Shown piece by piece: positions 30,461 to 47,299 of a stretch of 63,991 bases of DNA; the first letter of the stretch is position 1; every line of letters starts with the position of its first letter. The notes beneath the pieces are model-generated. The model had not been told where the DNA came from and ran no database searches. It was given only the letters and a program-made list of their open reading frames with translations. The DNA lies in assembly GCA_044344255.1 (NCBI GenBank), contig JBIJDH010000030.1, forward strand, positions 1-63,991. The letters run 5' to 3'. The stretch is from Myxococcota bacterium. GTDB lineage: Bacteria > Myxococcota_A > UBA796 > UBA2385. A program made the translations under genes and the position numbers.

Positions 30461-30683
30461 GGCGCGCCGCCAGCCTCCCCGCGCGGTCGGCCCTCTGCGC
30501 GTCGCCGCAGGCGCCCCGCGTTCGATCCGAGCTCTCTGTCGGGCATCGGACCGTCTTGTCATCCCGGTTCACTCCTGTGCGACAGCGGTGTCGCGGTTTT
30601 CGGTGTCGGGGCCGATCGGAGCCCCCAGGACCACCCTGAGAGAGCGCTGTTATCGCCTGGATCTCCGCCCCGGGCGCCGGCTC

Positions 30684-30699
30684 TGGTACGAGGCTTGCA
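30684..30699 (+). promoter_or_regulatory. Sigma54 -24/-12 promoter
   Basis: TGGTACGAGGCTTGCA (GG-N10-GC), 30 nt upstream of ATG30730. Confidence 0.7.
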
Positions 30700-30729
30700 C
30701 AGAGGTCTTCACCCTTGTGGAGGTCTGTG

Positions 30730-31482
30730 ATGCGCGTGGCTTCGTGGATGATGTTGTCGGTGGCCCTCTCTCCCCTCGTCGCCTGCGGCGACATGAGTGA
30801 GTCCACAGGAGAGCTGGGCCGAGTTCAGTACTCGTTGCACACCGACGTCATCACCGACGGGAGCTCGCTCAGCGGTGCCCTCCTCGTCGCCGGGCACCCC
30901 TTGAACATCCAGACCGCGCTCACGGAAGACGGCGCGCGGGACGCGGGTCGGCACCCCGAGCGCCTCCGCCACCGCTTCGATGACGATTCTGTCCAGGTCG
31001 AGAACGAGACGAACGACGACGAGATCGCCGACCTCGTGATCACCGCAGAGGCTGGCATCGACGGTGACCTGGAGACCGTCCAGGACGGCGAGGTCTTCGA
31101 CTACCTGCCCCTCTCTTTCCGCGAGCCCGACGATCTGGGCGCCATCACCTTCGTCCGGGGGCCGATGGACGATGAGATGGCGGAGGTGGACGGGGCCGCC
31201 CACACCGTGGTGGAGGGCGGATCGGCCACCCTGCTCGGCTTCCCGAAGCGCGACGGCGAGCGCCTCGTGGGGGACATCCGGCCGGAGCTCACCTTCGAGC
31301 CCGAGGGCATCGCCGTGCCCGACTTCGACGTGGCGGTCACCGTCGAGCAGGGGGCCTACGGCGCGATCTCACCCTACACGATCGTCTTCATCGAGCCGGG
31401 CGAGGTCACCGCGACCCTGACCGATCCGGTGTGGGGGGTGACGGTCACCCGCACCTTCACGGTCCAGCCCTTCGCAGACTGA
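30730..31482 (+). CDS. Hypothetical lipoprotein
   Basis: GGAGG RBS, LSPLVA-C lipobox, acidic beta-rich mature region. Confidence 0.8.
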   Translation: MRVASWMMLSVALSPLVACGDMSESTGELGRVQYSLHTDVITDGSSLSGALLVAGHPLNIQTALTEDGARDAGRHPERLRHRFDDDSVQVENETNDDEIADLVITAEAGIDGDLETVQDGEVFDYLPLSFREPDDLGAITFVRGPMDDEMAEVDGAAHTVVEGGSATLLGFPKRDGERLVGDIRPELTFEPEGIAVPDFDVAVTVEQGAYGAISPYTIVFIEPGEVTATLTDPVWGVTVTRTFTVQPFAD

Positions 31483-31485
31483 GGC

Positions 31486-32727
31486 TCAGGGCAGCCCCAT
31501 CGCGAGGCCCGCCACGCCCACGGCGGGCACCGTCTCGACCTCCGTGAGCGTGGGCCCCCACCAGATCGCCACGGTGGCGCCCGCGGCCGCGCCCGCCGCG
31601 TCGTACCGTTGGGCGAAGGCGAGGTCGGTCGCGCCGTCGCCGTCGAGGTCGCCGGCGGAGACGGCGGCAGCAGAGACGGTGGGGATGGACCAGCGCAGGG
31701 TCGGCTCTCGCACGCCCACCCCGAAGGACCAGACCTCCGAGCTGGCCTCGAAGTCGCTCTCGGTCATTCCCCCTTCCATCGCGTTGGCGATGATGAGCTC
31801 GGCGCAGCCGTCGCCGTCGAGGTCTGCCAGGGCGAGGTCATCGGCGCCGTGGGTCGGCAGGTCGCTGCGGCGCTCGGGGTCGAAGCCCCCCTCACCGCCC
31901 CAGTAGACCGCGGAGAGGATGTCGGTGTCGAGGGCGTCATAGAAGTTGGCATAGATGAGGTCGAGCCAGCCGTCGGCGTCGAGGTCGTGCTGGAGCACGG
32001 CCTCGGGTGCGAGGGTGGGGAGGGACTGACGGTTGGCCTCGGTCCAGCCGTCGGGGCCGCCCAGATAGACCCAGCTCTCCGTGGCCCAGAAGGTGCCGGC
32101 GGCGAGGGCGAGGTCGATGGTGCCGTCCTGGTCGAAGTCGCCCACTGCGGTCTGCGCGGTGCCGAAGCCCGGGACGGTCCACACCCTGTCCGGTCCGTAC
32201 CCCTCGGGGCCGCCCTGATAGACCGTCACGTCGACATGGTAGCTCTCCTCGGAGATGCCCCCGGTGCCGCTGTAGCGGTTCGAGAAGATGAGGTCGGGCC
32301 AGCCGTCGAGGTCGACGTCAGCCACCTCCACGTCAGCGGCGCCCACCGTGGGGAGCAAGGTGCGGCGGGCCTCGTCGAATCCTTCGGGCCCGCCCCAGTA
32401 GACGGCGGAGTCGACGTCGCGCACCGCACCGTCCGACAGGTTGGCGAAGATGACCTCCGGCCAGTCGTCTCCGTCGAGATCCGCGATGGCTACGTCATCT
32501 GCGCCGAGGGTAGGCAGGCTCGCGAGCGGGCTCCAGTCGGGCCCACGGAGGAGGGCCGAGCGGGTGTCGTAGGCCCCTGCGCTGTCCTCGGTCTGGGCGA
32601 GGGCGAGGTCAGCCGCGCCGTCACAGTCGAGGTCTCCGCAGCCCGCCTCGAGGGTGACAGGCGCGGGGCAGCGGGCCGGCGTCTCCGCCTCCTTGGAGGC
32701 GGCGCAAGCGAAGAGGAGCAGCAGCAT
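31486..32727 (-). CDS. FG-GAP/VCBS-repeat lipoprotein
   Basis: LLLFA-C lipobox and seven D(L/F/V)DxDGxxD/E(L/V) Ca-binding repeats with YWGGxEGF turns. Confidence 0.88.
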   Translation of the reverse strand: MLLLLFACAASKEAETPARCPAPVTLEAGCGDLDCDGAADLALAQTEDSAGAYDTRSALLRGPDWSPLASLPTLGADDVAIADLDGDDWPEVIFANLSDGAVRDVDSAVYWGGPEGFDEARRTLLPTVGAADVEVADVDLDGWPDLIFSNRYSGTGGISEESYHVDVTVYQGGPEGYGPDRVWTVPGFGTAQTAVGDFDQDGTIDLALAAGTFWATESWVYLGGPDGWTEANRQSLPTLAPEAVLQHDLDADGWLDLIYANFYDALDTDILSAVYWGGEGGFDPERRSDLPTHGADDLALADLDGDGCAELIIANAMEGGMTESDFEASSEVWSFGVGVREPTLRWSIPTVSAAAVSAGDLDGDGATDLAFAQRYDAAGAAAGATVAIWWGPTLTEVETVPAVGVAGLAMGLP

Positions 32728-32846
32728 GCCCCATCGTATCAGAGGCGGCCGCCACGCCGAGGCGGGCGACGACGTTGCGGGGGACGGCTCGGAGGCGCGG
32801 TTCACCGCGTCACCCTAAACCCCGGAGGCCCCGGGCCCTTGGCCAC

Positions 32847-35681
32847 TCAATCTCCCAACATCTCCCGCACCCGTTGGGGCAGGAGGGCCCGCGCGGCCTC
32901 GGGATCGGGGGTGTCGGCCAGCGCCAGGGACAGGCGGTCGCGGAGGCGTTGGTTGGCCTCCAAGGAGGCGATTCGAGAGAACTGCTGTGTCCAGTTCAAT
33001 GTGCGGAGCAAGAACCCCGACAGGCGAGCCCGCGCGGGGTCATTCGCCCAGCGCTCGGCATATTCCCGGATACGCGGCGCGAGGGGGGCGCCCGACTCCA
33101 CTACGTCGGTGACGAGCTCGAGGAGCGCGTCCTCTTCGGCGGGGGAGAGCTTCCAGGGTGGGCCGCCGCGACGGGTCGGCTCGATCACCACGTTGCTCGG
33201 CGCCTCGGTGGCGGACACGGCCGGGGAGGGAGACCTCGGTTGGGCCGACAGGGCGGGGCTCGGGAGCGCGGTGTCCGCGTCCTGCCCCTCGCCCCTCATT
33301 CGGTCGCCGACGGCGAGCACGCCGTCTTGCCAGGCGACGAGCCCATCGAAGACGTAGAGGTGCAGCAGGGGCTCGCCCGAGTGACCGAGGACCCTCACCT
33401 CTCCACCCGCGCCGAGCCGTGCGGGGGAGCCGGGCGACACCGCCTGCAAGCACCCGGCGCCGATCCGCCCGGCGACCACCGGCAGCGCGACCCCGGGGAG
33501 CGAGTGGAGGAGGAGGCCTCCGGCCTCGCGCTGGATCACGAAGTGCTCTCGAGAGAGGCCGGCCGTGTGGCTGAGCCCGAGGGTGGACAGGGTGTCGCCC
33601 GCCGCGATGCGCTCGATCTCCGCCTTTCGTGCCGCCTCGCGCGGAGCCGGGGCGGCGCGGTGAGGCCCGTCGAGCTTCGCCCAACCGACCGAGCGACCCA
33701 CCACGACCACAGAGGAGTCAAAGTCCCTTATAAAACCCTGCACATCGCCGCTGTCGTCGATCTGGGGGTGGAGGACGAACCGGAGCGTCCTCCGGTCTGA
33801 AGGCTGATGGTGGTGGAGCTGTGCCTCGACCTCGGGGACCCCGATCGGCCCGGGCCGCCCGTGCCCGAGGGCCAGCAGGCTCTGGTGAACTCCCGGGAGG
33901 GGCGCCCCGCGCAGGCCCTCCAGGAGCCGACGCAGGGCCGCGGTGCGAATGGGTCGGCCCTGGAGCCCTGCGAGCACCTGGCTCTGGAGCGCCGCGGGGG
34001 CCCGCTCCGCCCAGGGCGGCACCACCAACGTCCGGCTGTCCAGCAGCGCCCGATGGCGTCGGCGGAGGCCAGCCTCACTCGCCCAGCCGTCGACAGGCTC
34101 GCTGCTGAGCACGAGGAGCGGGGTCTCGCGGCGAGCCTCGGGAGAGAGGTGGTGGAGGTGCTCCGGGCGGACGACGCCGTCCCCTGCGGGGTCCTGTGCG
34201 GCGAGGTCCACCGCGGCGAGCACCAGCCCACGGAGCTCGCGGATATTGCCGGGCCAGTGCCACTCCTCGAGGAGGGCGTAGGACTCTTCATCAAAGTGCG
34301 GCGGTGGCCGGCCGCGCGCGGTCGCGGCGAAATGATCGGCGAGGAGCCTTACGTCGCCCCTCCGCTCACGCAGCGGGGGGAGCGCGAGGCGGTCGGGGCG
34401 CGCGAAGCGGTCGAGCAGGTCTTCCCGCACCTCTCCGCGGCGGGCTGCCTGCTCGAGATCGGCGTTCGTGGCGGCGACCACGGTGACGTCGACCCGGGTG
34501 GGGCGGTCGGCGCCCAAGGGCTGGATGTCCCCGAACTGGATGGCCCGCAGCAGCTTCTTTTGCGTGGCGGTGTCGATGTTCCCGAATTCGTCGATGAAGA
34601 GCGTGCCGCGGTCGGCCTCTCGGAAGGCGCCCTTCCGCGCGGGGGCCCCAGTGAAGGCGCTGCGCTCCTGGCCGAAGAGCAGCGCGTCGACGAGCGTGTC
34701 CGGGCAGGTGGAGAGGTCGAGGGTGACCAGCCGACCCGGGCGGCCCGAGAGGGCGTGGATGGCGCGGGCCAGGTCCTCCTTCCCGCTGCCCCGCTCCCCT
34801 TGCACGAGGATGGCATTTGACCGGGGAGCCACCCGCGCCGCCGTGTGCAGGACGCGCCGGAGCGCGGGGCTCTCGCCGATGATGCCGCTCAAGGCTGGGT
34901 GGTTGGGGCGCGGCGGGGCCTCGGGCTCCCAGGGCCCGGCGGGCCGCTGGGCGGCGTCCAGCTCGTCGAGGCGGCGAACGAGGGGGAGGGTGAGGGCGGG
35001 GTCCCCCTCCCCGGGCTCCTCCACCAGGGTCCACCGACCGGGGATCGGTCGCTCCGGGCGGTCGGCACGAAGCTCGACCATGGGCCGGTCGTCGAGGGTG
35101 GCGTGTGCCCAACGGGCGAGGCGGTGGCGCCCGGAGCCCGCGGGGCCGGAGAGCAGCACCACGCTGTCCCGCTGACAGAGGGCGAGGAGCGCCGCGCGGA
35201 TCCCGATGAGGGTGGGATCCAGCTCGACGTCGTGGGTGTGGTCGAGGGCCTGGAGGGCGGCGACCGCCCCGGGCGGGCTGGACAGGGCGGGGCCCTCTTG
35301 GGCGAGCAGCACGAGGCCACCCCCGGCGCGCGCCCGTTCCCCGAGGGTGGGGGCGCTCGCGAGCCCCTCCCAGCCGCGGTCGATGAACAGCCAGCCGCGG
35401 GCGGCCTGCTCGAAGCACTCCTCCAGGACCCGAGGATCGGCCTGGTCGGTAAGGTGACGAGGGTCGAGGTGGATGAAGGGCCGCCCCGAGCCCGCCTCTG
35501 CCGCCCAGCTCCGAAAGAGCCAACGGGCGACCACGAGGGCGGTGAGCCCGTGGAGAGGCGGGAGGAGGGCGAAGCCCGCCGTCGCGGCCTCCTGGACGGC
35601 GCTGAGCCACGCGGCCCAGGCTGCGGGGAGGGGGTGCCCGATGGGGAGGCGAGGGGCTTGTCGCCAGGGGGGTCTCAACAT
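32847..35681 (-). CDS. Sigma54-dependent enhancer-binding protein with degenerate extra AAA+ region and C-terminal FHA-like domain
   Basis: IIGESPAL, GERGSGKE, LFGQERSAFTGA, GTLFIDE, VAATN, REDLLDR, PPLRER, WPGNIREL. Upstream GPAGSGRH P-loop; downstream VVGRS..LSREH. Confidence 0.88.
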   Translation of the reverse strand: MLRPPWRQAPRLPIGHPLPAAWAAWLSAVQEAATAGFALLPPLHGLTALVVARWLFRSWAAEAGSGRPFIHLDPRHLTDQADPRVLEECFEQAARGWLFIDRGWEGLASAPTLGERARAGGGLVLLAQEGPALSSPPGAVAALQALDHTHDVELDPTLIGIRAALLALCQRDSVVLLSGPAGSGRHRLARWAHATLDDRPMVELRADRPERPIPGRWTLVEEPGEGDPALTLPLVRRLDELDAAQRPAGPWEPEAPPRPNHPALSGIIGESPALRRVLHTAARVAPRSNAILVQGERGSGKEDLARAIHALSGRPGRLVTLDLSTCPDTLVDALLFGQERSAFTGAPARKGAFREADRGTLFIDEFGNIDTATQKKLLRAIQFGDIQPLGADRPTRVDVTVVAATNADLEQAARRGEVREDLLDRFARPDRLALPPLRERRGDVRLLADHFAATARGRPPPHFDEESYALLEEWHWPGNIRELRGLVLAAVDLAAQDPAGDGVVRPEHLHHLSPEARRETPLLVLSSEPVDGWASEAGLRRRHRALLDSRTLVVPPWAERAPAALQSQVLAGLQGRPIRTAALRRLLEGLRGAPLPGVHQSLLALGHGRPGPIGVPEVEAQLHHHQPSDRRTLRFVLHPQIDDSGDVQGFIRDFDSSVVVVGRSVGWAKLDGPHRAAPAPREAARKAEIERIAAGDTLSTLGLSHTAGLSREHFVIQREAGGLLLHSLPGVALPVVAGRIGAGCLQAVSPGSPARLGAGGEVRVLGHSGEPLLHLYVFDGLVAWQDGVLAVGDRMRGEGQDADTALPSPALSAQPRSPSPAVSATEAPSNVVIEPTRRGGPPWKLSPAEEDALLELVTDVVESGAPLAPRIREYAERWANDPARARLSGFLLRTLNWTQQFSRIASLEANQRLRDRLSLALADTPDPEAARALLPQRVREMLGD

Positions 35682-35719
35682 GGGGTCGTGTAGCCTGTTG
35701 TCTGGATCCTCACCGGTGG

Positions 35720-38152
35720 TCAGCCCGTCGACGGCGGAGGAGGCGTCCGACAGAGTCGGAAGCCGCTGTCTACCCGGCGGTCGCTCACTCGCCGCATCCA
35801 GCGGCTCACGGTGGTGCAGTGCTGCATGCGCAGGGGCCAGGCGCCGCCTCGCGCCGCCCGGAGCTCGGCCTCGACGACGGGGGTGGTGTCCATCGCGCCG
35901 TCTGTCGTGACCAGGGGCCCCTGCTCCCGATAGCGGTCCTGGCACCAGTCCATCACGCCCCCCGCCATCCCGAAGACCCCGTAGGGGCCGACGTCGAGTG
36001 GGGTCTCCGATACGGCGCGCGGCGCTGGGGTGCCCCCCGCGCTCTCCCGCATGTTGGCGAAGGCGGGCTCGGCGTGGTCTCCCCAGGGATAGAGTCGTCC
36101 ATCCACACCGCGGGCGGCCTTCTCCCACTCCAGCTCCCAGGGGAGCCGATAGGGGAGGCCAGACCGACCGGCCTTCCACGCGGCATAGGCCATCGCGTCC
36201 GACCAGCCCACCATGAAGACCGGCCAGTCTGGCTCCCAGAGGTCGCCGTCGGGATCGGGGACGAGGCAGAAGCCGCCGTCGGGGCGGCGCCCATACAGGA
36301 GCTCGCCGCCCCGACCGCCGACCTTGTCCGTGCGGGGGGCGTGGCCGAGGGCGCGCGCCTCCTCCCCGCGCGCGACCAGATCATCGAGGAAGCCGATGTA
36401 CTCTGTGTTGGTGACGGGGTGGGCGTCGAAGACGAGGTCGTCTACCCACACCCTCGCCTGCCCCCCTTCGTGCTCGGTGCGTCGAGCGGTCCCCGCCTGG
36501 AACCAGCCCGCGGGGATGAAGCGCTCCTGGTCGCCGAGGCCGCCGGCGGGGAGGAGTCGGAGGGGGCGACCCTCCTGGCGCCCGGGAGGAGTCGCGTCCC
36601 ACCGTTCATTCCGTCCGATAGAGACGGGATAGCGCATCGGGTGGTGCCCAGGCGCCGACAGCTCCAGCAGGTAGCTCCCCATCTCGAGCGCGAGCTCGAC
36701 CGTCGGCCCGCCCCGCAGCGTCCGCAGCGGCTCGGGCACGAGGCGGCGCCCGCGGGGGCGATATCGGGAGAGGACCACCTCGACCTCGTCCGCCTCGAGG
36801 GTGATCCGGAGGGAGCCACGGCCGGAGCGGTATACGGCGTGTCGGCCGGAGAAGGCGTCGTGGGACTCGAGGAGCGCCGCGTACTCGGTGGCCTCTGCGC
36901 TCTCGCCGCGGGCCTCCGCCGCGCGGTGTAGGGCGAGGTAGTGGTCGGCGAGGCGGCTGTGCGCCTCCGGGAGATCGGGGACATCGACCAGGGCGGCGCG
37001 GAGGAGCTGCAGCGCCTGGGTCTCGTCCTGCCGGGCTTGTTGCTCGACGCGGGCGGCCTCGTCCTCCTGGGCCCAGGCGGGGGCCTTCTCCGGGGCGGGC
37101 GCGGCCGGGGAGAGGGCCCGCAAGCGCTCGGCCGCCGCGGCCCGGAGGCGGGCGGCCTGGCTCCGCTGCGCCTCGACCTCTCCTTGCAGGCTCAGCGCCT
37201 CGGCGACACGGTCGAGGGCTTGATCTCGGCGCCGGTCGCCGTCGAGCCAGGCGCCGAGCGCCCGGCCAAAGGCGCCTCCGTCGGCGAAGCGGTCGGCCGG
37301 GTCGGGCGCGAGGGCGCGCTCCACCAGGGCGACCATCTCCTCCGGCACCGGCTGGATGGGCCGCCAGGGCGGTCGCAGACCCCGGGCGAGCCCCTCCCGA
37401 AGCGCCGCGGCGTCTGGCCAGGGCGGCGAACCGCAGCAGAGGCTGTAGAGCATGGCGCCGGCCGCGAAGACGTCGGTGGGGGGCCCGATCTCGCCGAACC
37501 CCGGGCTGCCGGGGCCGGCCACCTGCTCGGGCGCGAGGAAGCCGGGGCTGCCGGGGGCCTCCCCCCAGCGGGTCTGTCCGTCGCCCCGCGCCTCGTCGGC
37601 CGCGAGCGAGGCGCGGGGCTCGCCGCGCGTCCACCGCGCGATCCCCCAGTCGAGCAGGAGCACCTCCCCGTAGCCCGCGGTCATGACGTTGCCGGGCTTG
37701 ACGTCCTGGTGGATGACGCCGCGGGCATGGGCGAAGCCGAGGGCGTCGAGCACGCGGGCGACGGCCTCCACCGCGCCTCGGAAGGTCCAGCCCTCCACGC
37801 TGGTCCAGGCCCCCGCGCGGCGGGAGGCGGATTGGAGCTGGCGAAAGACCTGATCGAGGCTCCGCCCCTCCACCACCTTCATCGTGAAGAAACGGCGCCC
37901 GTCGGGCAAGTGGCCGAGCTCGTAAACCGGCACGATGGCCGGGTGCTGGAGCGCGGCCGTGATGCGGGCCTCTTCGAGAAAGAGCGCCTGGAGCCGATCC
38001 TCGTCGCTGGGGTGGCGGGCCGCCACCACCTTCATGGCGACCTCGCGGCGCAGCTCGAGGTCCTCGACACGCCAGACCTCGCCCATTCCCCCGGCGCCGA
38101 GGTGGGCGCGAAAGGCATAGCGGGGTGGGAGCAGGGGAGTGGGCTCGCTCAG
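35720..38152 (-). CDS. Ser/Thr protein kinase fused to an FGE-sulfatase (SUMF1) domain
   Basis: LGAGGMGEVW, VAMK, HQDVKPGN, DWG, FLAPEQ, DVFAAG; HPVTNTEY, RLPWELEWEKAARG, YPWG, MAGGVMDWC, RGGAW, SGFRL. Start codon uncertain. Confidence 0.92.
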   Translation of the reverse strand: MSEPTPLLPPRYAFRAHLGAGGMGEVWRVEDLELRREVAMKVVAARHPSDEDRLQALFLEEARITAALQHPAIVPVYELGHLPDGRRFFTMKVVEGRSLDQVFRQLQSASRRAGAWTSVEGWTFRGAVEAVARVLDALGFAHARGVIHQDVKPGNVMTAGYGEVLLLDWGIARWTRGEPRASLAADEARGDGQTRWGEAPGSPGFLAPEQVAGPGSPGFGEIGPPTDVFAAGAMLYSLCCGSPPWPDAAALREGLARGLRPPWRPIQPVPEEMVALVERALAPDPADRFADGGAFGRALGAWLDGDRRRDQALDRVAEALSLQGEVEAQRSQAARLRAAAAERLRALSPAAPAPEKAPAWAQEDEAARVEQQARQDETQALQLLRAALVDVPDLPEAHSRLADHYLALHRAAEARGESAEATEYAALLESHDAFSGRHAVYRSGRGSLRITLEADEVEVVLSRYRPRGRRLVPEPLRTLRGGPTVELALEMGSYLLELSAPGHHPMRYPVSIGRNERWDATPPGRQEGRPLRLLPAGGLGDQERFIPAGWFQAGTARRTEHEGGQARVWVDDLVFDAHPVTNTEYIGFLDDLVARGEEARALGHAPRTDKVGGRGGELLYGRRPDGGFCLVPDPDGDLWEPDWPVFMVGWSDAMAYAAWKAGRSGLPYRLPWELEWEKAARGVDGRLYPWGDHAEPAFANMRESAGGTPAPRAVSETPLDVGPYGVFGMAGGVMDWCQDRYREQGPLVTTDGAMDTTPVVEAELRAARGGAWPLRMQHCTTVSRWMRRVSDRRVDSGFRLCRTPPPPSTG

Positions 38153-38277
38153 GCGACGCCTCGCAGCGGGCGGACATCGTAGCGCGTGGCGATGGCTGGG
38201 CGTAGTCCCCGCGCGGAGGTGCTCTGCGCGCCGCGTCGGCGGCGCGACGCCGGGCCGATCGGCGCGGGTCGCGATCC

Positions 38278-38293
38278 TGGCATGCGTCGTGCT
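38278..38293 (+). promoter_or_regulatory. Sigma54 -24/-12 promoter
   Basis: TGGCATGCGTCGTGCT (GG-N10-GC) in the intergenic region, ~130 nt upstream of ATG38421. Confidence 0.6.
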
Positions 38294-38420
38294 ATTTGTC
38301 GGGCGCCTGCACGGGACGCTGCGCGGGACCCTGTCGGAGGGTGACCGGGCCGAGGGCCTGTCTCTCCTTCGGCGCACCCGCTTCGTGCGCGCTCGCTTAC
38401 ACGCGCCCCTTGGAGGTCTG

Positions 38421-39647
38421 ATGTCTGTCGCCCTCGCTCGAGCCCTGATGGTGGGCTGCCTGGTCATCGCCGGGACCGCCTCCGCGGCCACCCCGCTCCC
38501 CACCATGCAGGCATCCCCCGCGTCGAAGTTGGGTACCGCCTCGTCTACCACCAGCCCCGCGGCCCCCTGTGTGACGGAGGGGTGCAGCCTGCGACCGACC
38601 GACGTGGGCGACATCATGCCGCCTCCGGACTGGATCCTCTCCTCCCTCGCCTTCGTCCTTCCGACGTCCTCGCGGGATGGCCTCGTGGGGGAAGCGGTGG
38701 ACCGCGCCGCGACCCTGTCCCGAACCGACCCCGCCGCAGCCTTCCTCCCGCTGTCGGGAAGCCCCGATGTCGCCGTGGAGGCCGCCTTCACGATCGGCGG
38801 CCAGCGCTTCGAGGGCGAGCTGCAAGGGGTCGCGGACGGTCGAGGCCGCCTCGAGGAGGGCGAGCCGCTGCTCTTCGTCGGCGGGACCGATCTCGACGGC
38901 GACGGGGTGGACGAGGCGGTCGCCGGGCCTGTGGAGTGGTCGGCGGGGTCCTTTCGGGCGGCCCTCCTGGTCCGGAGCGCCGGCCTGGACGATGAGGCGG
39001 CCCCGCTCCTCCTGCTCGAGGTCGGCAGCGGGCGGCTCGGCTCGGCCAGCGCGCCGGTCTCCGTGCCGGTCCTCGAGACCCTGAGCCTCTACGACGCCGA
39101 CGGAGCGCCCCTCCTCATCGACACCTCCCGTCCGATCTCCGCGGACGTCGTGTTGGAGGGCTGGGCCTCCTCGACCGACGTCTATGGGCGAGGCAGTAAC
39201 CTCCTGAGCTCGACCGGCCTCTCCTGGCGGGGCGAAGACTTCAGTCTGGCGGTAGATGTCGTCTCCGCCGCCTCGCGCGGCGCGAGCGCGGTCGTCTGGG
39301 CCTCCGAGTATGCCGACGGGGACGGCATGGTCACCGGGGTCGCCAGCCTGCTCGGCACCGCCAGCGCGGGCAGCCTGCGCGCGGCCTACCTCATCGAGTC
39401 GGGGGGCCGGACGGTCACCCAGGACCAGCGGGGTCTGGCGACGAGCCGCGGCGCCACGCTCTCCACGCGCACGGTGGAGGGGCGGTCGAGCTGGTCGAGC
39501 AGCACGAGCTGGACCGATGTGGACCTCTCCTACCAGGCCCCTTCGGTGAGCACCGACGGCTCGATCGACTGGGCCGCGGTGGGTGAGGCGCTCGGCGCGG
39601 GGGTGCCGACCGGCTCGGTGGACTCGGTAGACCGCGACCCGACCTGA
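38421..39647 (+). CDS. Secreted hypothetical protein
   Basis: GGAGG RBS, signal peptide ending TASA-AT, one DLDGDG Ca-binding-like motif. Confidence 0.7.
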   Translation: MSVALARALMVGCLVIAGTASAATPLPTMQASPASKLGTASSTTSPAAPCVTEGCSLRPTDVGDIMPPPDWILSSLAFVLPTSSRDGLVGEAVDRAATLSRTDPAAAFLPLSGSPDVAVEAAFTIGGQRFEGELQGVADGRGRLEEGEPLLFVGGTDLDGDGVDEAVAGPVEWSAGSFRAALLVRSAGLDDEAAPLLLLEVGSGRLGSASAPVSVPVLETLSLYDADGAPLLIDTSRPISADVVLEGWASSTDVYGRGSNLLSSTGLSWRGEDFSLAVDVVSAASRGASAVVWASEYADGDGMVTGVASLLGTASAGSLRAAYLIESGGRTVTQDQRGLATSRGATLSTRTVEGRSSWSSSTSWTDVDLSYQAPSVSTDGSIDWAAVGEALGAGVPTGSVDSVDRDPT

Positions 39648-39702
39648 AGCCTCGCGCAGCCGGCGCCGCCCGGCCGAAGCAGCCTGCGGATCGTCATCAC
39701 CC

Positions 39703-39739
39703 AGAGCGCCCTCGAGCCATCGAGGGCGCTCTTTCATTT
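39703..39739 (+). terminator. Rho-independent terminator
   Basis: 13-bp perfect stem agagcgccctcga-gcca-tcgagggcgctct followed by ttcattt, ~55 nt after stop 39647. Confidence 0.75.
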
Positions 39740-39887
39740 CCGGGGATGGGCCCGCGCCCCCGCGCGCGGTGTCGGCCCATCGCCGAACCAACACGAAACA
39801 AGCCGAACCGGCTCCGGCGGGCGGCCTGTTGACGCCCCGAACGGGCGGTGCGCGGCGCGACCGGGGCGCCCAGCGGCCGATTGGGGC

Positions 39888-39903
39888 TGGCACGGGCCTT
39901 GCT
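39888..39903 (+). promoter_or_regulatory. Sigma54 -24/-12 promoter
   Basis: TGGCACGGGCCTTGCT is an exact match to TGGCAC-N5-TTGC(A/T). Confidence 0.85.
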
Positions 39904-39985
39904 TTTAGGTTCCTCGTGGCCGGCACGGCCGGAAACACCCTCTGATTCCTCATCAATGCTCGCTCTTCACATCCGGATGGACCCC

Positions 39986-40801
39986 ATGCGCGCTCCCGCC
40001 CTCCTCGCCGCCCCGCTCTTCGTCCTCCTCTCTCTCCTCGCCGCCTGCGGCCCCTCCGACGACAGCGCGGCCGAGGGCCTCGCAGCGGACGAGCTCGGCG
40101 CCGACGTCCTCGTCGATGACCCCGCGGGCGATCCCCTCGTGGCCGAGAGCCCCGTGTCCTCCAACGCCTGGCCCCTCGCGACCACCGCTGCGGCCGCCGA
40201 CGCCATCTTCTCGGGCACCGTGACCGCCGTGGACCAGCGCCTCGCCGAGCGAAACGCGGCCGGCGTGCGGGTGCCCTTCACCTTCGTGACGATCCAGGTG
40301 GAGCACGCGGTGAAGGGCGCGGTGGAGGGAGAGCCTGTGACCCTCCGTCTCCTTGGCGGGCGCGGCGAGGACGGCGGTCTCCTCTACAACGCCGAGGGCA
40401 CGGTCTTTGAGGTGGGGCACCGCTGCATCCTCTTCGTCTCCGGGAATGGGGAGAGCGGCTATCCCCTCGTCGGGGGTGGTCAGGGGCGCCTCCGCGTCGT
40501 GGACGGTCGGGTTTATGACAATGGTGGCGCCGCGCTCCGCCTCGACCCCCGCGACGGCCTCGTCCGCGGCGGCTGGGAGCGCCTCGACGAGGTGCTCGAC
40601 GCCCAGGTGGACGGCACCCCCCTCCTCCTCCACGCCGATGACCGGGTGGACAGCAACAACGACGAGGACGCCGCCGAGCTCGGCACGACGCTCCGCTTCC
40701 TCGATGGACAGGTGGGCGACGCTCAGGCCCCCCTCATTCAGAGCCTCGACCGGGACGCCGCCTTCACCTTCTCCTTCTCGATGAAGCCCGACGCGCGCTG
40801 A
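39986..40801 (+). CDS. Lipoprotein with putative OB-fold (NTR/TIMP-like) domain
   Basis: LLAA-C lipobox; ADAIFSGTV..TFVTIQVEHAVKG..LRLLGG..FEVG.RCILF..GGGQG pattern. Confidence 0.75.
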   Translation: MRAPALLAAPLFVLLSLLAACGPSDDSAAEGLAADELGADVLVDDPAGDPLVAESPVSSNAWPLATTAAAADAIFSGTVTAVDQRLAERNAAGVRVPFTFVTIQVEHAVKGAVEGEPVTLRLLGGRGEDGGLLYNAEGTVFEVGHRCILFVSGNGESGYPLVGGGQGRLRVVDGRVYDNGGAALRLDPRDGLVRGGWERLDEVLDAQVDGTPLLLHADDRVDSNNDEDAAELGTTLRFLDGQVGDAQAPLIQSLDRDAAFTFSFSMKPDAR

Positions 40802-40889
40802 TCGCCCGACCCGGCCTGTTTGACCGAATCGGCGCCCCGCGTACGTCAGCCTCTCCTTCACATCCTCACGACCCTATCGGAAGACCATC

Positions 40890-41960
40890 ATGCGCAAGCT
40901 CTCCCTCGCCGCCCTCTCTATCGTCGCCCTCAGCCTCTCCGCCCCCGCCGGCGCCACCACGGTGGCCAACAAGTGGGCCAGCGGCACCGCCAACATCCTG
41001 CTCAACCCCTGGACCGCCTTCCTCCGCTCTGCAGAGACGACCACCCTCCAGAACGCCATCGCGATGACCTACAACAACCCGTCTTACGCCTATCTGACGA
41101 TGAGCATCGACGATGACTACTCGTCAGACCTCCTGAACGGCGAGAGCGAGTCGGGCCTCACCAATGACAGCGCCAAGCTCTGCGGCGCGATGTCGGATGG
41201 CTGCGCCTACGTCTATCTGAACTCCAGCGGCAACATCTCGGAGGCGGACGTCTTCTTCAACTCGGTGACCAGCTTCGACAACACGATGTCGAAGTCGGCC
41301 ACCTGGGGCTACGGGGGAGCGAGCCGCCCCCTCTTCGCCACCGGGCTGCACGAGTTCGGACACGCGCTCGGCCTCTCGCACACCAACTACACCCACTCGA
41401 TCATGGGCACCGAGTACACCTACCTCAACGTGAACGGGAACACCTACACGAGCCACTTGGGAGAGGACGCCAGCTACGCCCTGCGCGCCGCCTACGGCAC
41501 GGCGACCGGCTGGGAAGACTTGAGCTTGTCCCACTGGCGTTACAGCGCCGCCTCCGGCGAGTACACGGTCGACATCCGCACCCGCTTCTTGAACTCCGCG
41601 GGGGCCGAGTCTATCAAGTACGCGACCTCACCGGAGCCTGTCTACCTCCTCGGCAAGGGCGCCGTCTTCACCGCCGAGGCCACCCTCGAGAACAACGGCA
41701 GCGCCGCGCAGTACGCGACCATCCGCTATTACCTCTCCGCCGACTCGACGATCACGACCGGCGACACCCTGCTCGCCACGAAGGCCGTGTGGACCTACAA
41801 CGGCACCCCCGACACCATCAACCAGAGCCTGACCCTGCCGAAGACGCTGGTGTCCGGTCAGACCTGGTTCGTCGGCGCCATCGTCGATCCGCTGGGCTCG
41901 ATCGCGGAGTACGACGAGTCGAACAACGCGATCTACCTCTCCCAGATCCGCGTGTTCTGA
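40890..41960 (+). CDS. Matrixin (M10/MMP-like) zinc metalloprotease with C-terminal CARDB-like domain
   Basis: Signal peptide, EADVFFN, HEFGHALGLSH, SIM Met-turn, YYLSAD..IVDP..IAEYDESNN. Confidence 0.9.
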   Translation: MRKLSLAALSIVALSLSAPAGATTVANKWASGTANILLNPWTAFLRSAETTTLQNAIAMTYNNPSYAYLTMSIDDDYSSDLLNGESESGLTNDSAKLCGAMSDGCAYVYLNSSGNISEADVFFNSVTSFDNTMSKSATWGYGGASRPLFATGLHEFGHALGLSHTNYTHSIMGTEYTYLNVNGNTYTSHLGEDASYALRAAYGTATGWEDLSLSHWRYSAASGEYTVDIRTRFLNSAGAESIKYATSPEPVYLLGKGAVFTAEATLENNGSAAQYATIRYYLSADSTITTGDTLLATKAVWTYNGTPDTINQSLTLPKTLVSGQTWFVGAIVDPLGSIAEYDESNNAIYLSQIRVF

Positions 41961-42023
41961 CCCTCCCTCGGCGGGTGGCGCGTGTGGCGCTCCCGCCGGG
42001 TAGACCCTCAGAGGCCGCCGCCC

Positions 42024-43934
42024 TCAGTTCCAGAGGATCTCGGCCTTCCAGGCTTCCATTCGGATGCGGACGGCGAGGTCGGACTCTGTGATGGGCACGA
42101 GGGCGTACATCTCGACCTGATAGGCGTCCCAGCCGCCGCCAGTGGGGCCCGTGCGCATCGGGAAGGTGACGGGGTTGGCCGGCAGCTCGAAGGGGGCGGT
42201 GGACTGACCGTCGGCGGAGGTGATGCTGTTGATCACCAGCACGCCGTCGCCCACGGCGAAGCGGATGGTGTCGCCGTCGGTGGTGGGGGAGGTGCCGGCG
42301 AGCAGGAGGAAGGAGACGGTGCCCTGGTCGGTGACATAGCGCTGGTCCTCCCAGGCCCGGCCGACCTGCTCGCCCGAGACCGAGCCCTCCACCCGCCAGT
42401 TGCCGAGCGCGCCGTCGAAGGTGAGGGTCCAGGTCTCGGGGCGCACGAGGCCGCCGCAGTCGGCGAAGATCACGCTGCGCAGCGTGTCGGGGTCGGTGTA
42501 CATCGTGGGATTGGAGGCGTCACCGCGGTCGGTGAACTTGACCACCTCCACGCCCTGGCTGGTCGCGAGGCGGGCCCCCTGGCTGTCGATGGCGAGGCAG
42601 CCCGTGGCCCCCTCCACCATGCGCACCGCCCCGTCGAAGGTGGTGAGCATGACGATGTAGTCGTCCTTGCGCACGCCTGCGTTGTTCCGCTCCTGGAGGC
42701 GGAGGGGCTCGGGCGCGGTCGACAGGCCGATGATCGGGCTGCGGACGTCGATGCCTTGGGGCTCCCCGTCGAGGGGGTTCGGGTCGAGCCAGGCCCCGGT
42801 CAGCAGGTCGAGCGTGTCGAGGCGGGTCTGGCTGGCGAGGCCGACGACGAGGTGCGCGTAGGCGGGCTCGGCGAGGTCGGGGTTGCCCTCGCTCGCGACG
42901 TAGGCGATCGCGGCCACGGTGCCGTCGGTCTCGATCTCCTCGTAGGTGGAGGCGGAGGGGTCGGCGAGGTCGAGCGCCACCCGATAGACCGCGGGGCGCT
43001 GGGCGTCGGCCACGAAGAGGTCGGTGCCGTCAGCGCCGAAGGTGAAGCGCCAGGGCTGCGCGCCCTCGGGGAGGGCGACCCGGCCGATGACGCTGCCGAG
43101 CTCGGGGTCGAAGACCTGCACGTCGCCGGTCTCGGCGGCGGCGTCCCAGACGCCGGCCACGAGCAGGGCCTCGCCGGGGATGTTGGAGAGGCCGAGGACC
43201 GGCCCGCCGAGCGGATACTCGAGCAGCCCGGTGTCGGTGTGCAAGGTGAAGACGTCGCCGCTCGAGGCCGAGCCCTCGATCTTGAAGCTCAGCTCGCGGC
43301 GGTCGCTGCGGTAGTCCTTGCCCGTCTTGGCGGTCTGCACCTGCTTGCCGGAGCGGCTGCCCTCCACCCACCAGACGTCTCCGTCGAAGCTGATCGTCCA
43401 GTCTTCGGTGGTGGTCCAGCCGTGGCGGAGGGTGATGTCCGTGAGGGTGGCGCTGTCGCCGCTGCCGTCGGTGTCTACGAAGGCGGGCTCGCTCGCCTCC
43501 AGCACCGAGGGGATGGGCTCGCCGCCGTCGAGGCCGATGACGTAGGGGGCCTCGACGAGCACGTCATTGGAGAGGTCGGCGGCGAAGAGGGTGACCCGCT
43601 CCTCATCGGGGGCCCAGACGGCGAGCTGGCCGAGCTGGCGCATGTCGCCGGTCGCGATGGTGCGCGGCGTGAGGAAGGGGCCGCCGAGCTGATCGGCGAG
43701 CACCGTGCCGTGCTTGAGGTCGAGGGGGGTGATGACCCCGTTGCCCGTGCTGGCGACGAAGGCGACGGGATCGTCGAAGGGGCCGCCATCCAGAGGGTCA
43801 AGGACGACGGCGGCGTCGGGGCGATCGAAGATGCCGCGGCCAAAGGTGTCCGTGCTGCAGCCGCTCTGGCCGAGGCCGAGGGCGAGCCCGAGGACCGCCA
43901 GGGCGCGGGCCGGGGCTAGCGGTCGACGATCCAC
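42024..43934 (-). CDS. Beta-propeller lipoprotein with repeated inserted beta domains
   Basis: LGQSG-C lipobox, YncE-like blades (ADGTDLFVAD), two WT(I/L)xFDG..WxVEGSxSG modules. Confidence 0.75.
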   Translation of the reverse strand: MDRRPLAPARALAVLGLALGLGQSGCSTDTFGRGIFDRPDAAVVLDPLDGGPFDDPVAFVASTGNGVITPLDLKHGTVLADQLGGPFLTPRTIATGDMRQLGQLAVWAPDEERVTLFAADLSNDVLVEAPYVIGLDGGEPIPSVLEASEPAFVDTDGSGDSATLTDITLRHGWTTTEDWTISFDGDVWWVEGSRSGKQVQTAKTGKDYRSDRRELSFKIEGSASSGDVFTLHTDTGLLEYPLGGPVLGLSNIPGEALLVAGVWDAAAETGDVQVFDPELGSVIGRVALPEGAQPWRFTFGADGTDLFVADAQRPAVYRVALDLADPSASTYEEIETDGTVAAIAYVASEGNPDLAEPAYAHLVVGLASQTRLDTLDLLTGAWLDPNPLDGEPQGIDVRSPIIGLSTAPEPLRLQERNNAGVRKDDYIVMLTTFDGAVRMVEGATGCLAIDSQGARLATSQGVEVVKFTDRGDASNPTMYTDPDTLRSVIFADCGGLVRPETWTLTFDGALGNWRVEGSVSGEQVGRAWEDQRYVTDQGTVSFLLLAGTSPTTDGDTIRFAVGDGVLVINSITSADGQSTAPFELPANPVTFPMRTGPTGGGWDAYQVEMYALVPITESDLAVRIRMEAWKAEILWN

Positions 43935-46900: not shown

Positions 46901-47299
46901 GGCGTGGGCCCGGGTGGCGGCGCCCTCGCTCAAGCGGGAGGCGATCATCGCCGTCCCGTTCTGGATCGCCATCCCGCCCACGAAGTCCGGCAGGTCGATC
47001 GCCGAGGCGCCGAGCTCGCTCACGACGTTGCGGCCGGCCTCGAGGTCGACCGCGCCCCAGGGGATCGCCAGCAGCGAGCCGCCGGTGAAGAGCTTGTAGG
47101 GGTTGGCGTTGGTGACGAGCAGGACGGGGTCGCCGGCCTCGTCGGAGGTGAACGCGAGGTCTACCGGGCCGGACAGGCAGGTGCCGATCCCGATCTCACC
47201 GAACTCGTAGACCCCCTCCGGGTAGGTCGCGCAGTCGCCCACGTCGGGCAGGGGGGCGCTCTGTTTGCAGCCCGCGAGGAGAGCGGCCAGGAGGAGCAA
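43916..47299 (-). CDS. Large lipoprotein: YncE-like propeller with inserted GH43/GH32/GH130-like five-bladed propeller repeats
   Basis: LLAG-C lipobox; WD..V.DP.(I/V)L..(W/Y)Y.G..(I/M)G.ATSxDGxxW repeats; C-terminal PDGQRLYLTN and TPDGKHVVIAN blades. Confidence 0.78.
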   Translation of the reverse strand: MLLLAALLAGCKQSAPLPDVGDCATYPEGVYEFGEIGIGTCLSGPVDLAFTSDEAGDPVLLVTNANPYKLFTGGSLLAIPWGAVDLEAGRNVVSELGASAIDLPDFVGGMAIQNGTAMIASRLSEGAATRAHADDLHLVNIDALPSLSPSSRGTDGGSTITLRSDPMAVVLDPTSNFTFVGNRTSHTISVLDGSGDTIKVVDPWPEAMLSSSTFSDADGSGSTASVTDLDIWEADLLTDDRWTLSWIEGTWRLWLPTALGFSRTQTTGSGVYTASGLGVELLAEDLGDGLTLADPDWVNGGRLYFEVEGEIWYAASGDWLGDWSVADLPSLSGRPGEWDEVVSGPSIATNADGYYLFYDGADAAGAPSKIGRAFAAEGEFFQRKGAGEAERDPVFAPDLDYAAGGVSDPFVLFDVETDLWDMYFTAEGSDGRLTIGHATSPDLLVWTADAAPAFEIEGLDVAAPAIAEAVGEHRLWFAVSDGLSWQIGAALKRDGVTWTDLGPVLDTDAPADGPPPGVALQAAPTHAFHAEGEHAGSLNYPVEPASEFIAFEDGWQISVLVGATLAPGDAGAESAGGLHLDSVDAEAGLAWLTVRSEGGTNRIRTATYSPSGDIVPDSSGYFGGTDGFDRDGVSSATVLRVDGTYYLYYAGTRSSRTVMGLATSNDGRTWTRVGEVLDHGGEGDWDAASVVPTSIEALGDGEVRVWYAGFDGDVWRVGSASGALGERLSRDGSKGLALTTGSPGDWDDSGVRDPYILRDLDDKGDLLGHHLWYSGFDGDLWRMGYAYKAASAEDFSRSLDETTAEPRPIMGTEGATFHPDGVGRPVVLRAADGSYTGTYAGLNGSETFVGRFTGAAPDRLHKRLSLPTLGDTLTFSTERGDPDQDSIPLDTYVEDVGIVGIGLTSLTVDSERGFLYVSSKLLPYITVLDIRDDSTEAFQDLNYLDVEAVLAYDNASDADGFRGVVVIPGEDRLYAVNDEPEGIWTLDISGLVDDAFSEFIYDTVIGWLPAPRSGERDEGVSTMSSVGPATLLPDPDGQRLYLTNFNANSLTVYDLDLGPNGTLTDEIPNLGENPYGMVLTPDGKHVVIANYGGEVAQSGLALSTLAVMDIDETSPTYLEVLTWIVDR

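Follow-up and report, generated by a model that had tools for sequence, protein, structure and literature searches.

A putative kinase-controlled sigma54 activator in an inserted block of exported-protein genes of an uncultured Myxococcota bacterium

The genome of an uncultured lake bacterium carries an 11.5-kb gene block with a kinase, a sigma54 activator and genes of exported proteins, which lies in the stretch of 63,991 nucleotides analysed here (the window). With about even confidence, we read this block as an inserted module in which a cytoplasmic kinase likely controls an unusual sigma54 activator via a predicted phosphothreonine-FHA contact, the activator in turn likely switching on, at minimum, the exported-protein genes closest to it through a tail predicted to bind DNA. 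The lipoprotein-protease pair is most plausibly the target.

The inserted block and its gene content

30461..42023, no strand: inserted block; flanked by the second TldD-like gene on one side and a lipoprotein gene on the other, both conserved
30730..31482, plus strand: lipoprotein with lipobox LVAC and GGAGG ahead of the ATG; no Pfam match, no paralogue
31486..32727, minus strand: FG-GAP repeat lipoprotein
32847..35681, minus strand: sigma54 activator P0002, 944 aa, of a HTH-less, FHA-bearing family; PF00158, 163 bits (cut-off 20.2)
35720..38152, minus strand: P0001, Ser/Thr kinase, helical linker and FGE/C-type-lectin-fold domain
38421..39647, plus strand: secreted protein, no Pfam match, one distant paralogue (C15)
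39986..40801, plus strand: lipoprotein, start at 39977 or 39986
40890..41960, plus strand: secreted metzincin with HEFGHALGLSH, Met-turn SIMG and a C-terminal CARDB-like domain

Insertion of the block as one unit is supported by the empty site in a relative, G003 (L160), where the flanking genes end 52 nt apart with the whole block lacking. Among 67 related loci, none was found to carry an activator, kinase or target gene alongside the TldD pair. A direct repeat was sought at the block ends and none was found, and the composition of the block equals that of its surroundings, apart from lower codon scores of the activator, the kinase and the 38421 gene.

As proposed in the preliminary description of this DNA, the kinase-FGE gene (PF00069 and PF03781) lies directly upstream of the activator gene (PF00158); it ends at 35720 on the minus strand, 38 nt ahead of the activator ATG at 35681. 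The FG-GAP lipoprotein gene, a fourth exported gene and one that has no sigma54 site, is on the same strand and downstream of both. The assignment of the genes behind the three promoters described below to a lipoprotein, a secreted protein and a lipoprotein/protease pair also held, with signal peptides and lipoboxes judged by eye; the 40890 protein is a matrixin-like protease, with PF00413 above cut-off and both the HExxHxxGxxH motif and the Met-turn present. Of 13 related loci, 9 pair a lipoprotein of the 39986 type with the protease. A word-index search returned no relatives outside the same species for the 39986 lipoprotein and the C-terminal half of the activator, blanks that do not amount to absence because profile and genome searches did find relatives.

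The kinase-FGE protein and the activator family

The kinase start is likely the CTG at 38152, and no in-frame ATG, GTG or TTG occurs from the promoter gap to the glycine loop; a frameshift or assembly error at the start was ruled out, four other runs being without an indel. The highest 19-residue hydropathy of the protein is 1.11, which bears out the earlier remark that it has no transmembrane helix, and its sequence supports a cytoplasmic location. Hanks-type residues are kept (G19/21/24, K41, E61, D150, N155, D168, E209, D227), along with HQD instead of HRD (R in 58/65) and S202 where T is found in 63/65. Catalytic FGE proteins carry a cysteine pair after RGGS. Since the FGE domain of P0001 (GGAWPLRMQHC) has one Cys only, and these positions vary among 65 homologues, it is likelier to be a non-catalytic binding domain. 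Relatives of the kinase-FGE protein number 540 at E<=1e-40.

The activator comprises the following parts, in the order degenerate AAA, AAA+, degenerate lid, FHA and helical tail:

34917..35681, minus strand: two degenerate AAA-like N-terminal units without GAFTGA loop (HHalign 71% and 97.4%)
34137..34889, minus strand: intact AAA+ core with Walker A GERGSGKE, SAFTGA loop, Walker B FIDE, R419/R425 and sensor II NIREL
33801..34130, minus strand: degenerate copy of the final AAA+ strands plus lid (residues 518-627; HHalign 98.5-98.8%)
33297..33800, minus strand: FHA-fold domain (residues 628-795) with G662-R663 and S710-R711-x-H713, a helical insert of ~35 residues and a third loop without Asn
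32850..33170, minus strand: all-helical C-terminal tail (residues 838-944; confident AF2 helices), candidate DNA-binding domain

The fold of the AAA+ core matches PspF, NtrC1 and ZraR, and its catalytic residues are retained. Of 147 columns conserved in the family, P0002 differs at 15, among them V418 in place of F, the lost WWGN motif and the sigma54-contact loop, which reads SAFTGA here (1 of 67 family rows) and GAFTGA in 40/67. Judged from nucleotide changes, the activator gene is under purifying selection: 15 synonymous versus 6 replacement changes were counted among the 21 listed, and 0 of 13 replacements in P0003 fall in residues 113-622.

The FHA domain is invisible to Pfam (PF00498 not matched in P0002), and its fold, suggested in the preliminary description, was confirmed by structure search (VIA), with Z 10.3 to the MDC1 FHA over 102 residues (rmsd 3.0) and Z 10.1 to EmbR (rmsd 2.7-3.0 for both matches). 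In the 67 family rows the GR and SRxH residues are conserved in 66 (G), 65 (R; GR 65), 61 (S), 64 (R) and 46 (H). The motif of the third FHA loop is S-N-G-T; its Asn is replaced by L-P-G in the activator family. In G074, the same FHA-like domain is fused to an OmpR-type winged helix, directly behind a kinase-FGE gene.

The family consists of ~900-aa proteins almost confined to one order of uncultured Myxococcota, and outside that order it was found in 2 genomes, among 401 sampled from the phylum. A kinase lies within 1 kb of 5 of the 6 family paralogues in this genome, compared with 3/29 other activators and 4.3% of long genes, and a kinase-FGE gene adjoins 4/6 paralogues versus 1/29 other activators. 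Because the linked kinases do not group together (a quick tree needs 7 changes for 8 rows) and gene order varies, the pairing of kinase and activator must have recurred. The proposed coupling of the two proteins gains from 5 of 6 paralogues, from the GR and SRxH residues and from an arrangement in G046 described below, but the idea of an obligatory kinase is weakened: among complete family loci in relatives, a kinase is near 7/21 and none is found within 4.5 kb in 14/21, and some family members have no FHA domain.

The absence of a kinase at most family loci would also suit a scheme in which kinase and activator are co-inherited yet work in parallel, the kinase-FGE protein sensing the cytoplasm for other targets and the activator responding to a nucleotide or partner that its degenerate AAA units would bind. 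The P-loop (GPAGSGR) retained in the second N-terminal unit and the 13 of 17 kinase-FGE paralogues of this genome that are not beside an activator-family member are consistent with it. We find such parallel action very doubtful, however: outside the ATPase, few positions are as conserved as the phosphate-binding residues of the FHA domain, and three different types of FHA regulators adjoin kinase-FGE genes. Control of the activator by the kinase is the reading followed below.

Sigma54 promoters, phased repeats and the lipoprotein-protease cassette

The three -24/-12 sites described earlier are present on the plus strand in intergenic gaps, together with two further features:

30684..30699, plus strand: P1, -24/-12 sigma54 promoter TGGTACGAGGCTTGCA, matrix score 18.6; no 10-bp-phased array upstream
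38278..38293, plus strand: P2, -24/-12 sigma54 promoter TGGCATGCGTCGTGCT, score 16.1, the weakest of the three; divergent from the kinase
39703..39732, plus strand: terminator-like 13-bp hairpin with T tail, separating the P2 and P3 units
39785..39808, plus strand: GAAC, GAAA and GAAC spaced exactly 10 bp apart, 103-83 nt upstream of P3; possible activator site, weak
39888..39903, plus strand: P3, -24/-12 sigma54 promoter TGGCACGGGCCTTGCT, score 25.5

P1-P3 follow GG-N10-GC, are each oriented toward a gene and are putative promoters by motif. When a matrix was built from 47 intergenic sites on other contigs, it returned exactly these three sites in the 64-kb window, which agrees with the earlier impression that no comparable site lies elsewhere in it; among 121 intergenic matches they rank 53, 75 and 5, respectively. 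The genome-wide scan recovered the three sites but revealed such promoters to be common, with 113 intergenic sites at a score of at least 13. Neither an IHF consensus (best 3-4 mismatches) nor a sigma70-type promoter was found. Two further motifs were set aside: GGCCGATYGG, common to the surroundings of P1-P3, was picked post hoc and lies at unequal distances (about -74, -25 and -13), and the fourfold CGACA[GC] at P1 (second highest of 113) was likewise post hoc and not 10-bp phased, one copy differing in strain X16.

Promoters linked to the activator family carry short repeats ~10 bp apart. In a motif-free test, chains of at least 4 units at 9-11 bp were detected at 9/31 family-linked versus 4/106 other promoters, the 9 comprising among others each of the 4 further family-linked promoters in this genome, and the arrays comprise 26 spacings of 9-10 bp. 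Held-out flanks with at least 7 units amounted to 3/17 versus 0.2%, and the strict motif scored 1 at the held-out promoter L170 and 0 at L055. The loci compared are kin, so that p-values overstate the effect, and one metagenome locus, a duplicate of DNA already counted, was left out of the counts. These phased repeats suggest that the helical tail, with its conserved W, E, R, N and P, is a DNA binder. The tail gave no Pfam, no PDB-sequence and no clear Atlas match; in the structure searches FHA filled the match list, so the tail may still have a known fold.

The repeat type tracks the tail motif (RPTQ/RLSQ with GCAC, HPTQ with GAAC, KTAD with GTAC), if in few independent clades. This co-variation weighs against another scheme, in which the activator has no DNA-binding domain (cf. 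FlgR, CtcC) and acts from solution after being assembled by phosphorylation, the repeats being bound by another protein, e.g., a neighbouring TIGR02147 or winged-helix protein. In line with such a scheme, Pfam, PDB-sequence and Atlas searches found no HTH, TIGR02147 genes adjoin several family members, and TGCAC resembles an NtrC half-site. Nevertheless, the arrays accompany the family gene in loci without TIGR02147, the GCAC-N7-GTGC palindrome occurs in 1/16 arrays only, and family members without the FHA domain retain the tail; we hence judge action from solution unlikely and keep the tail as the candidate DNA-binding domain.

At P1, P2 and P3 the family-motif scores are 1, 0 and 0 and the chain lengths 2, 1 and 3. 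The phased repeats of the family are thus missing at P1 and P2, which weakens the original proposal that the activator drives all three promoters; only P3 has a possible phased array, and chains of 3, the length of its triplet, occur at 21/106 control promoters. A sigma54 site lies within 1 kb of 12/21 complete family loci; in this genome, such a site is found for 31% of other activators and 4.4% of all genes, and the paralogues C70 and C77 have none within 5 kb. Ahead of homologous lipoprotein-protease cassettes the sigma54 site is retained in 6/13 loci. Cassette and site also occur together in G132, G018, G130 and G046, where the activator family was not found; in G046 a non-orthologous canonical FHA-AAA-HTH activator and a kinase-FGE gene precede the same sigma54 site-lipoprotein-protease cassette. 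With these four genomes, and with ~35 sigma54 activators and 113 promoters in the genome (RpoN is represented by one PF04552 match), the case for a self-contained circuit is weakened.

These same observations accord with a further explanation, by which the family works as proposed but the P0002 copy is weakened or retuned, P1-P3 being driven in trans by other activators and the block being a landing site for accumulated sigma54-driven exported-protein cassettes. The missing arrays at P1 and P2, the divergent residues in both activator and kinase, and the absence of all three target genes from the surroundings of each of 38 activator-family loci in relatives point the same way. Against it stand three sigma54 sites within 5 kb, a density reached at 0.36% of genes only, the lack of the whole block in G003, the retained catalytic core with prevailing synonymous changes and the 10-bp GAAC triplet upstream of P3; furthermore, the G to S change at position 1 of GAFTGA is listed as putatively functional in the Fig. 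3 legend of PMC3162934. We regard this explanation as possible though rather improbable, and retain the kinase-controlled activator acting at least on its nearest target.

Proposed mechanism and comparison with known systems

In the proposed mechanism, the FGE/lectin-fold domain would bind a cytoplasmic ligand and the kinase would autophosphorylate, after which the FHA domain would dock on a phosphothreonine carried either by the kinase or by the activator's own chain. The active AAA+ could then be freed from the flanking degenerate AAA pieces and form a ring; among these pieces, the unit that follows the AAA+ core complements the second N-terminal one, each being half of a single AAA+ fold. 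Some 80-130 nt upstream, the tails would bind in head-to-tail order to G-N-A-C repeats phased by ~10 bp, and the GAFTGA-type loop would open the sigma54 closed complex. More tentatively, and with more doubt than belief, we suggest a new class of sigma54 activators, with an active AAA+ nested within its own dead copy, a built-in lock that phosphothreonine would open via the C-terminal FHA, and a new helical DNA-binding domain reading G-N-A-C repeats one helical turn apart, whose residue-to-base code (RPTQ-GCAC, HPTQ-GAAC, KTAD-GTAC) would keep six paralogous kinase-activator circuits of a single genome apart. If this code were true, the paralogues would be natural orthogonal kinase-switched activators.

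The usual sigma54 activator, of a well-catalogued kind, has a sensor in front, an ATPase and a Fis helix-turn-helix on palindromic sites; the family breaks this plan in three ways, by dead AAA copies, by an FHA behind the ATPase and by a different tail with phased direct repeats. It also provides a compact, testable example in which a eukaryote-like kinase is wired to sigma54, as has been proposed for myxobacteria, and suggests for the first time what the widespread kinase-FGE proteins may act on.

The idea of a kinase acting through an FHA activator on sigma54 is already known from myxobacteria; the activator is not of the kind known there. MXAN4899-type activators of Myxococcus xanthus (Jelsbak, Givskov and Kaiser, 2005) reportedly have an N-terminal FHA, a central sigma54 AAA+ and a C-terminal Fis HTH, with Ser/Thr kinase input proposed. 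The P0002 family shares with them the phylum, FHA and sigma54 AAA+ and a kinase gene nearby, but its ~900-aa members carry degenerate AAA units and the FHA after the ATPase, and no Fis-type HTH (HTH_8) was found in the 6 paralogues of this genome or in 25 tails, a difference that the preliminary description missed; the G046 activator does follow the Myxococcus plan (N-terminal FHA, AAA+, C-terminal HTH). SARPs use direct repeats one helical turn apart. EmbR of the EmbR-PknH pair (Mycobacterium; PDB 2fez) likewise has a C-terminal FHA and an adjoining kinase gene, but is an OmpR-type sigma70-class SARP regulator without the AAA+ of P0002. The Myxococcota proteins named bifunctional Ser/Thr kinase / FGE-family proteins by NCBI resemble P0001 in their N-terminal kinase, C-terminal lectin-fold FGE and lack of a TM helix; no function or partner was found for them in the literature searched, and here they are linked to FHA regulators. 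FGS, with which the FGE domain may be compared, are ligand-binding domains (PMC7159879). The literature searched, including PMC3162934, PMC4641369, PMC12288465, PMC7910581 and PMC7159879, does not describe the activator architecture, and supplementary domain tables of surveys could include the family unnamed. Finally, the type Ic activators FlgR, CtcC and FleT, listed without a DNA-binding domain in PMC3162934, share with the P0002 family the lack of HTH_8, but they are short, whereas P0002 and its relatives conserve a helical tail of 105 residues and come with phased repeats upstream.

The kinase-activator block and its promoters

Our analysis placed the features of the block as follows.

30684 (+): -24/-12 sigma54 promoter P1, before a lipoprotein gene at 30730
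32847..35681 (-): sigma54 activator P0002
35720..38152 (-): kinase-FGE gene P0001
38278 (+): promoter P2, before a secreted protein gene at 38421
39888 (+): promoter P3, before a lipoprotein gene at 39986 and a metzincin protease gene at 40890

All three sites named in the preliminary description are present at these positions, and a scan with a matrix built from 47 intergenic sites of other contigs found P1, P2 and P3 (scores 18.6, 16.1 and 25.5) alone within the window, as had been judged by eye. The genome-wide scan proposed earlier placed 94 of 99 hits scoring at least 15 in intergenic DNA despite an 89% coding share, so the motif class is real. The motif itself is common (113 intergenic sites at a score of at least 13); three sites within 5 kb are rare, being seen for 0.36% of genes. 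Exported products were mildly enriched behind such sites (38 of 98 against 29%, by a crude rule). The leader TGGAGGTCTG stands directly before the start codon of both the P1 and P2 genes (window 30720-30732 and 38412-38423).

The kinase gene does lie directly upstream of the activator gene, 38 nt from it and like it on the minus strand, and an FG-GAP lipoprotein gene follows downstream; this gene was missing from the original list, whose genes and sites are otherwise as described. The block at 30461-42023 is an insertion. In one relative (G003, locus L160) 52 nt separate the end of the second TldD-like gene from that of the match to the 42024 gene, so that 30461-42023 is missing there; this is a single empty site and does not imply arrival in one step. 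Around the TldD pair at 67 loci, none of the block's activator, kinase or promoter-driven genes turned up, and one locus gave a weak FG-GAP match. The 42024 gene has different neighbours at its nine other loci. Two large lipoprotein genes at 42024-47299 remained neighbours at all 10 loci retrieved, and homologues of the first occur in 19 of the 21 genomes in the family; neither gave a protein family match beyond weak propeller hits.

The host genome (8.18 Mb, 71% GC, 95% complete; the window is its contig C19) carries one rpoN, about 35 sigma54 activators and, by gene calls made in this analysis, 97 Ser/Thr kinase genes, 17 of them of the kinase-FGE type. Window DNA is present in lake-water metagenomes, and homologues of one flanking gene are labelled mostly as Myxococcota or Deltaproteobacteria MAGs.

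The activator family

The AAA+ core of P0002 (944 aa) is intact, and the protein matched neither FHA nor HTH in Pfam. Profile comparison revealed that residues 15-150 and 150-255 (71% and 97.4%) are degenerate versions of the ATPase's first part, both lacking the GAFTGA loop, and that 518-627 (98.5-98.8%) is a degenerate version of its last strands and lid. Pieces two and three complement each other, from which it may be inferred that an active ATPase is nested in a dead one. The FHA-like domain proposed earlier is borne out by the predicted structure (model pLDDT 86.7), in which residues 628-795 match the FHA fold with Z 10.3 to MDC1 and 10.1 to EmbR. Across 67 aligned rows the FHA residues are kept in 65 (GR), 61 (S), 64 (R) and 46 (H); a helical insert separates GR from S/R/H, and the third-loop Asn of the canonical motif is absent. 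The tail (residues 838-944) is modelled as seven helices and had no match in Pfam (25 rows), PDB sequences or Atlas.

Exact GAFTGA occurs in 40 of the 67 rows and SAFTGA in P0002 alone; this type of change is listed as putatively functional in a figure legend of PMC3162934. P0002 deviates at 15 of 147 conserved family columns, more than 48 of the 66 other rows do. Among the strain differences listed, 15 of 21 are synonymous, and none of the 13 replacements in a sister strain falls inside activator residues 113-622.

Five full-length paralogues (33-39% identity) occur in the same genome. This family of ~900-aa, HTH-less, FHA-bearing activators was found in 28 of 154 genomes of the order (one being a non-AAA fusion) and in 11 of 401 sampled across the phylum, nine of which belong to the same order; from 1.84 billion representatives, a C-terminal-half profile recovered 87 clusters with E<=1e-30, rising to 119 with 1e-10. 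Shorter members (L071:7839-9995, L072:7617-9782, P0114) are without FHA and keep the degenerate AAA units and tail, and two genomes have a detached second copy of the tail a few kilobases away from the full gene (L043:4913-codon region / G034:C2:64821-64973; L069:2853-3296). Other members (L045:10892-12198, L066:7189-8480, L067, L068, L069, L070) have as neighbours a TIGR02147 gene and a gene for a small secreted protein that begins with Y-x-G-N-P, possibly a second recurring module; their GAFTGA loops are mostly altered (GAFEGA, FAFDGA, GAASNF, GAFSDA).

The kinase and its linkage to the family

P0001 keeps the catalytic residue set, with HQD where 58 of 65 homologues have R and S202 where 63 have T, and no TM segment was found, in line with the earlier reading. 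No ATG, GTG or TTG lies in frame in the stretch from the promoter gap to the glycine loop; since a near-cognate CTG at 38152 lies six bases after GAGG and the region has no indel in four other runs, translation likely starts at this CTG. Gene callers place the start of this gene (window 38152) and of that at G000:C52:71379 at a Met within the glycine loop itself (P0153, 788 aa); for the window copy the CTG is likelier. True FGE enzymes carry a catalytic cysteine pair, which is absent from the FGE domain of P0001. FGE-type domains are described in PMC7159879 as ligand-binding C-type-lectin folds.

Five of the six family genes in the host genome have a kinase within 1 kb, compared with 3 of the 29 other activators and 4.3% of long genes; for a kinase-FGE within 1 kb the figures are four of six, 1 of 29 and 1.0%. 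The family-linked kinases are scattered over a quick tree (7 changes for 8 rows). The synteny check proposed for relatives showed the linkage to be optional (12 of 37 loci in 26 genomes); at loci with 3 kb on both sides, a kinase was found in 7 of 21 and one with FGE in 4 of 21. Two other regulator types support the kinase-FHA logic: in G074 an OmpR-type winged helix with the family FHA-like domain directly follows a kinase-FGE, and in G046 a canonical FHA-AAA-HTH activator stands beside a kinase-FGE, a -24/-12 site and a homologous lipoprotein-protease cassette.

Fusions of the insert-bearing FHA-like domain to an OmpR-type winged helix (L079:7405-10935, L078:609-1130; P0101, P0107, P0113, P0118, P0119) have an EmbR-like layout, and in one case the fusion directly follows a kinase-FGE gene. 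Elsewhere in the host genome (L004, G000:C77:82746-89668) another kinase-FGE follows a GAF-AAA-HTH activator at a distance of 26 nt, with a sigma54 site carrying five CGACA[GC] units and an adjoining gene that looks caspase-like by eye; a similar gene adjoins a kinase-FGE at L041.

Phased arrays, candidate targets and relation to known systems

A sigma54 site lies within 1 kb of the family gene at 12 of 21 complete loci, and the genes behind such sites encode small exported proteins that differ at each locus, with no homologue of the three window targets among them. Upstream of these sites we found arrays built from G-[C/T/A]-A-C units, with their peak 80-120 nt ahead of the -24 element, a pattern recognized after the fact in 29 family-linked promoters against 106 controls. 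Unit spacing, which was not selected for, was 9-10 bp in 26 cases, and an NtrC-like palindrome occurred in 1 of 16 arrays. A motif-free test gave chains of at least four in 9 of 31 family-linked promoters against 4 of 106, and all four other family-linked promoters of the host genome have them. Among 17 flanks outside the discovery set (excluding L047 and L068, which were in it, and L056, with wrong coordinates), three had at least seven units (null 0.2%) and five at least five (null 2-5%), two of the five being close kin. The strict motif numbered 1, 1, 0 and 1 at held-out promoters L045, L170, L055 and L076, and L045 carries the predicted GAAC type three times. Because phased arrays lie near family promoters and, in the few clades observed, the repeat type tracks the motif of the tail, the tail may bind DNA; the case is indirect, from loci that are partly kin and not independent. 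An intergenic run of 12 GCAC-type units (C29:173963-174288, G000) has no sigma54 site or family gene nearby.

The anatomy described earlier holds, and the logic of the proposed relay, from kinase through FHA to sigma54 promoters, is likely; as the best explanation it has about an even chance of being right. P0002 alone driving P1-P3 fared less well: the three fit the family motif poorly, with motif counts of 1, 0 and 0 and chain lengths of 2, 1 and 3. A phased triplet (GAAC/GAAA/GAAC at 39785, 39795 and 39805) exists at P3 only, and chains of three occur in 21 of 106 controls. P0002 may still drive P1-P3 alone, and a rival reading, in which other activators of the genome drive them in trans, is less likely than the best explanation. 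The P0002 tail motif, NWTQQFSR, matches no other member, so that its DNA site may differ.

The lipoprotein-protease pair behind P3 (window 39986-41960; L186-L198) forms a cassette in its own right. Homologues of the protease occur in 11 of 153 other genomes; the lipoprotein precedes the protease in 9 of 13 loci and a sigma54 site precedes the cassette in 6 of 13, marking P3 as a conserved promoter. Four genomes (80-93% complete) have cassette and site with no family member detected. The lipoprotein may be either a partner of the metzincin or its inhibitor: its ADAIFSGTV stretch is reminiscent of TIMP-like OB folds, a reading for which no database match was found.

The circuit type of kinase, FHA and sigma54 is reportedly already known from Myxococcus. 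New relative to the literature searched is a family that combines dead AAA units in a nested layout, an FHA placed after the ATPase, a tail that is not of the Fis type, and direct repeats in phase with the DNA helix.
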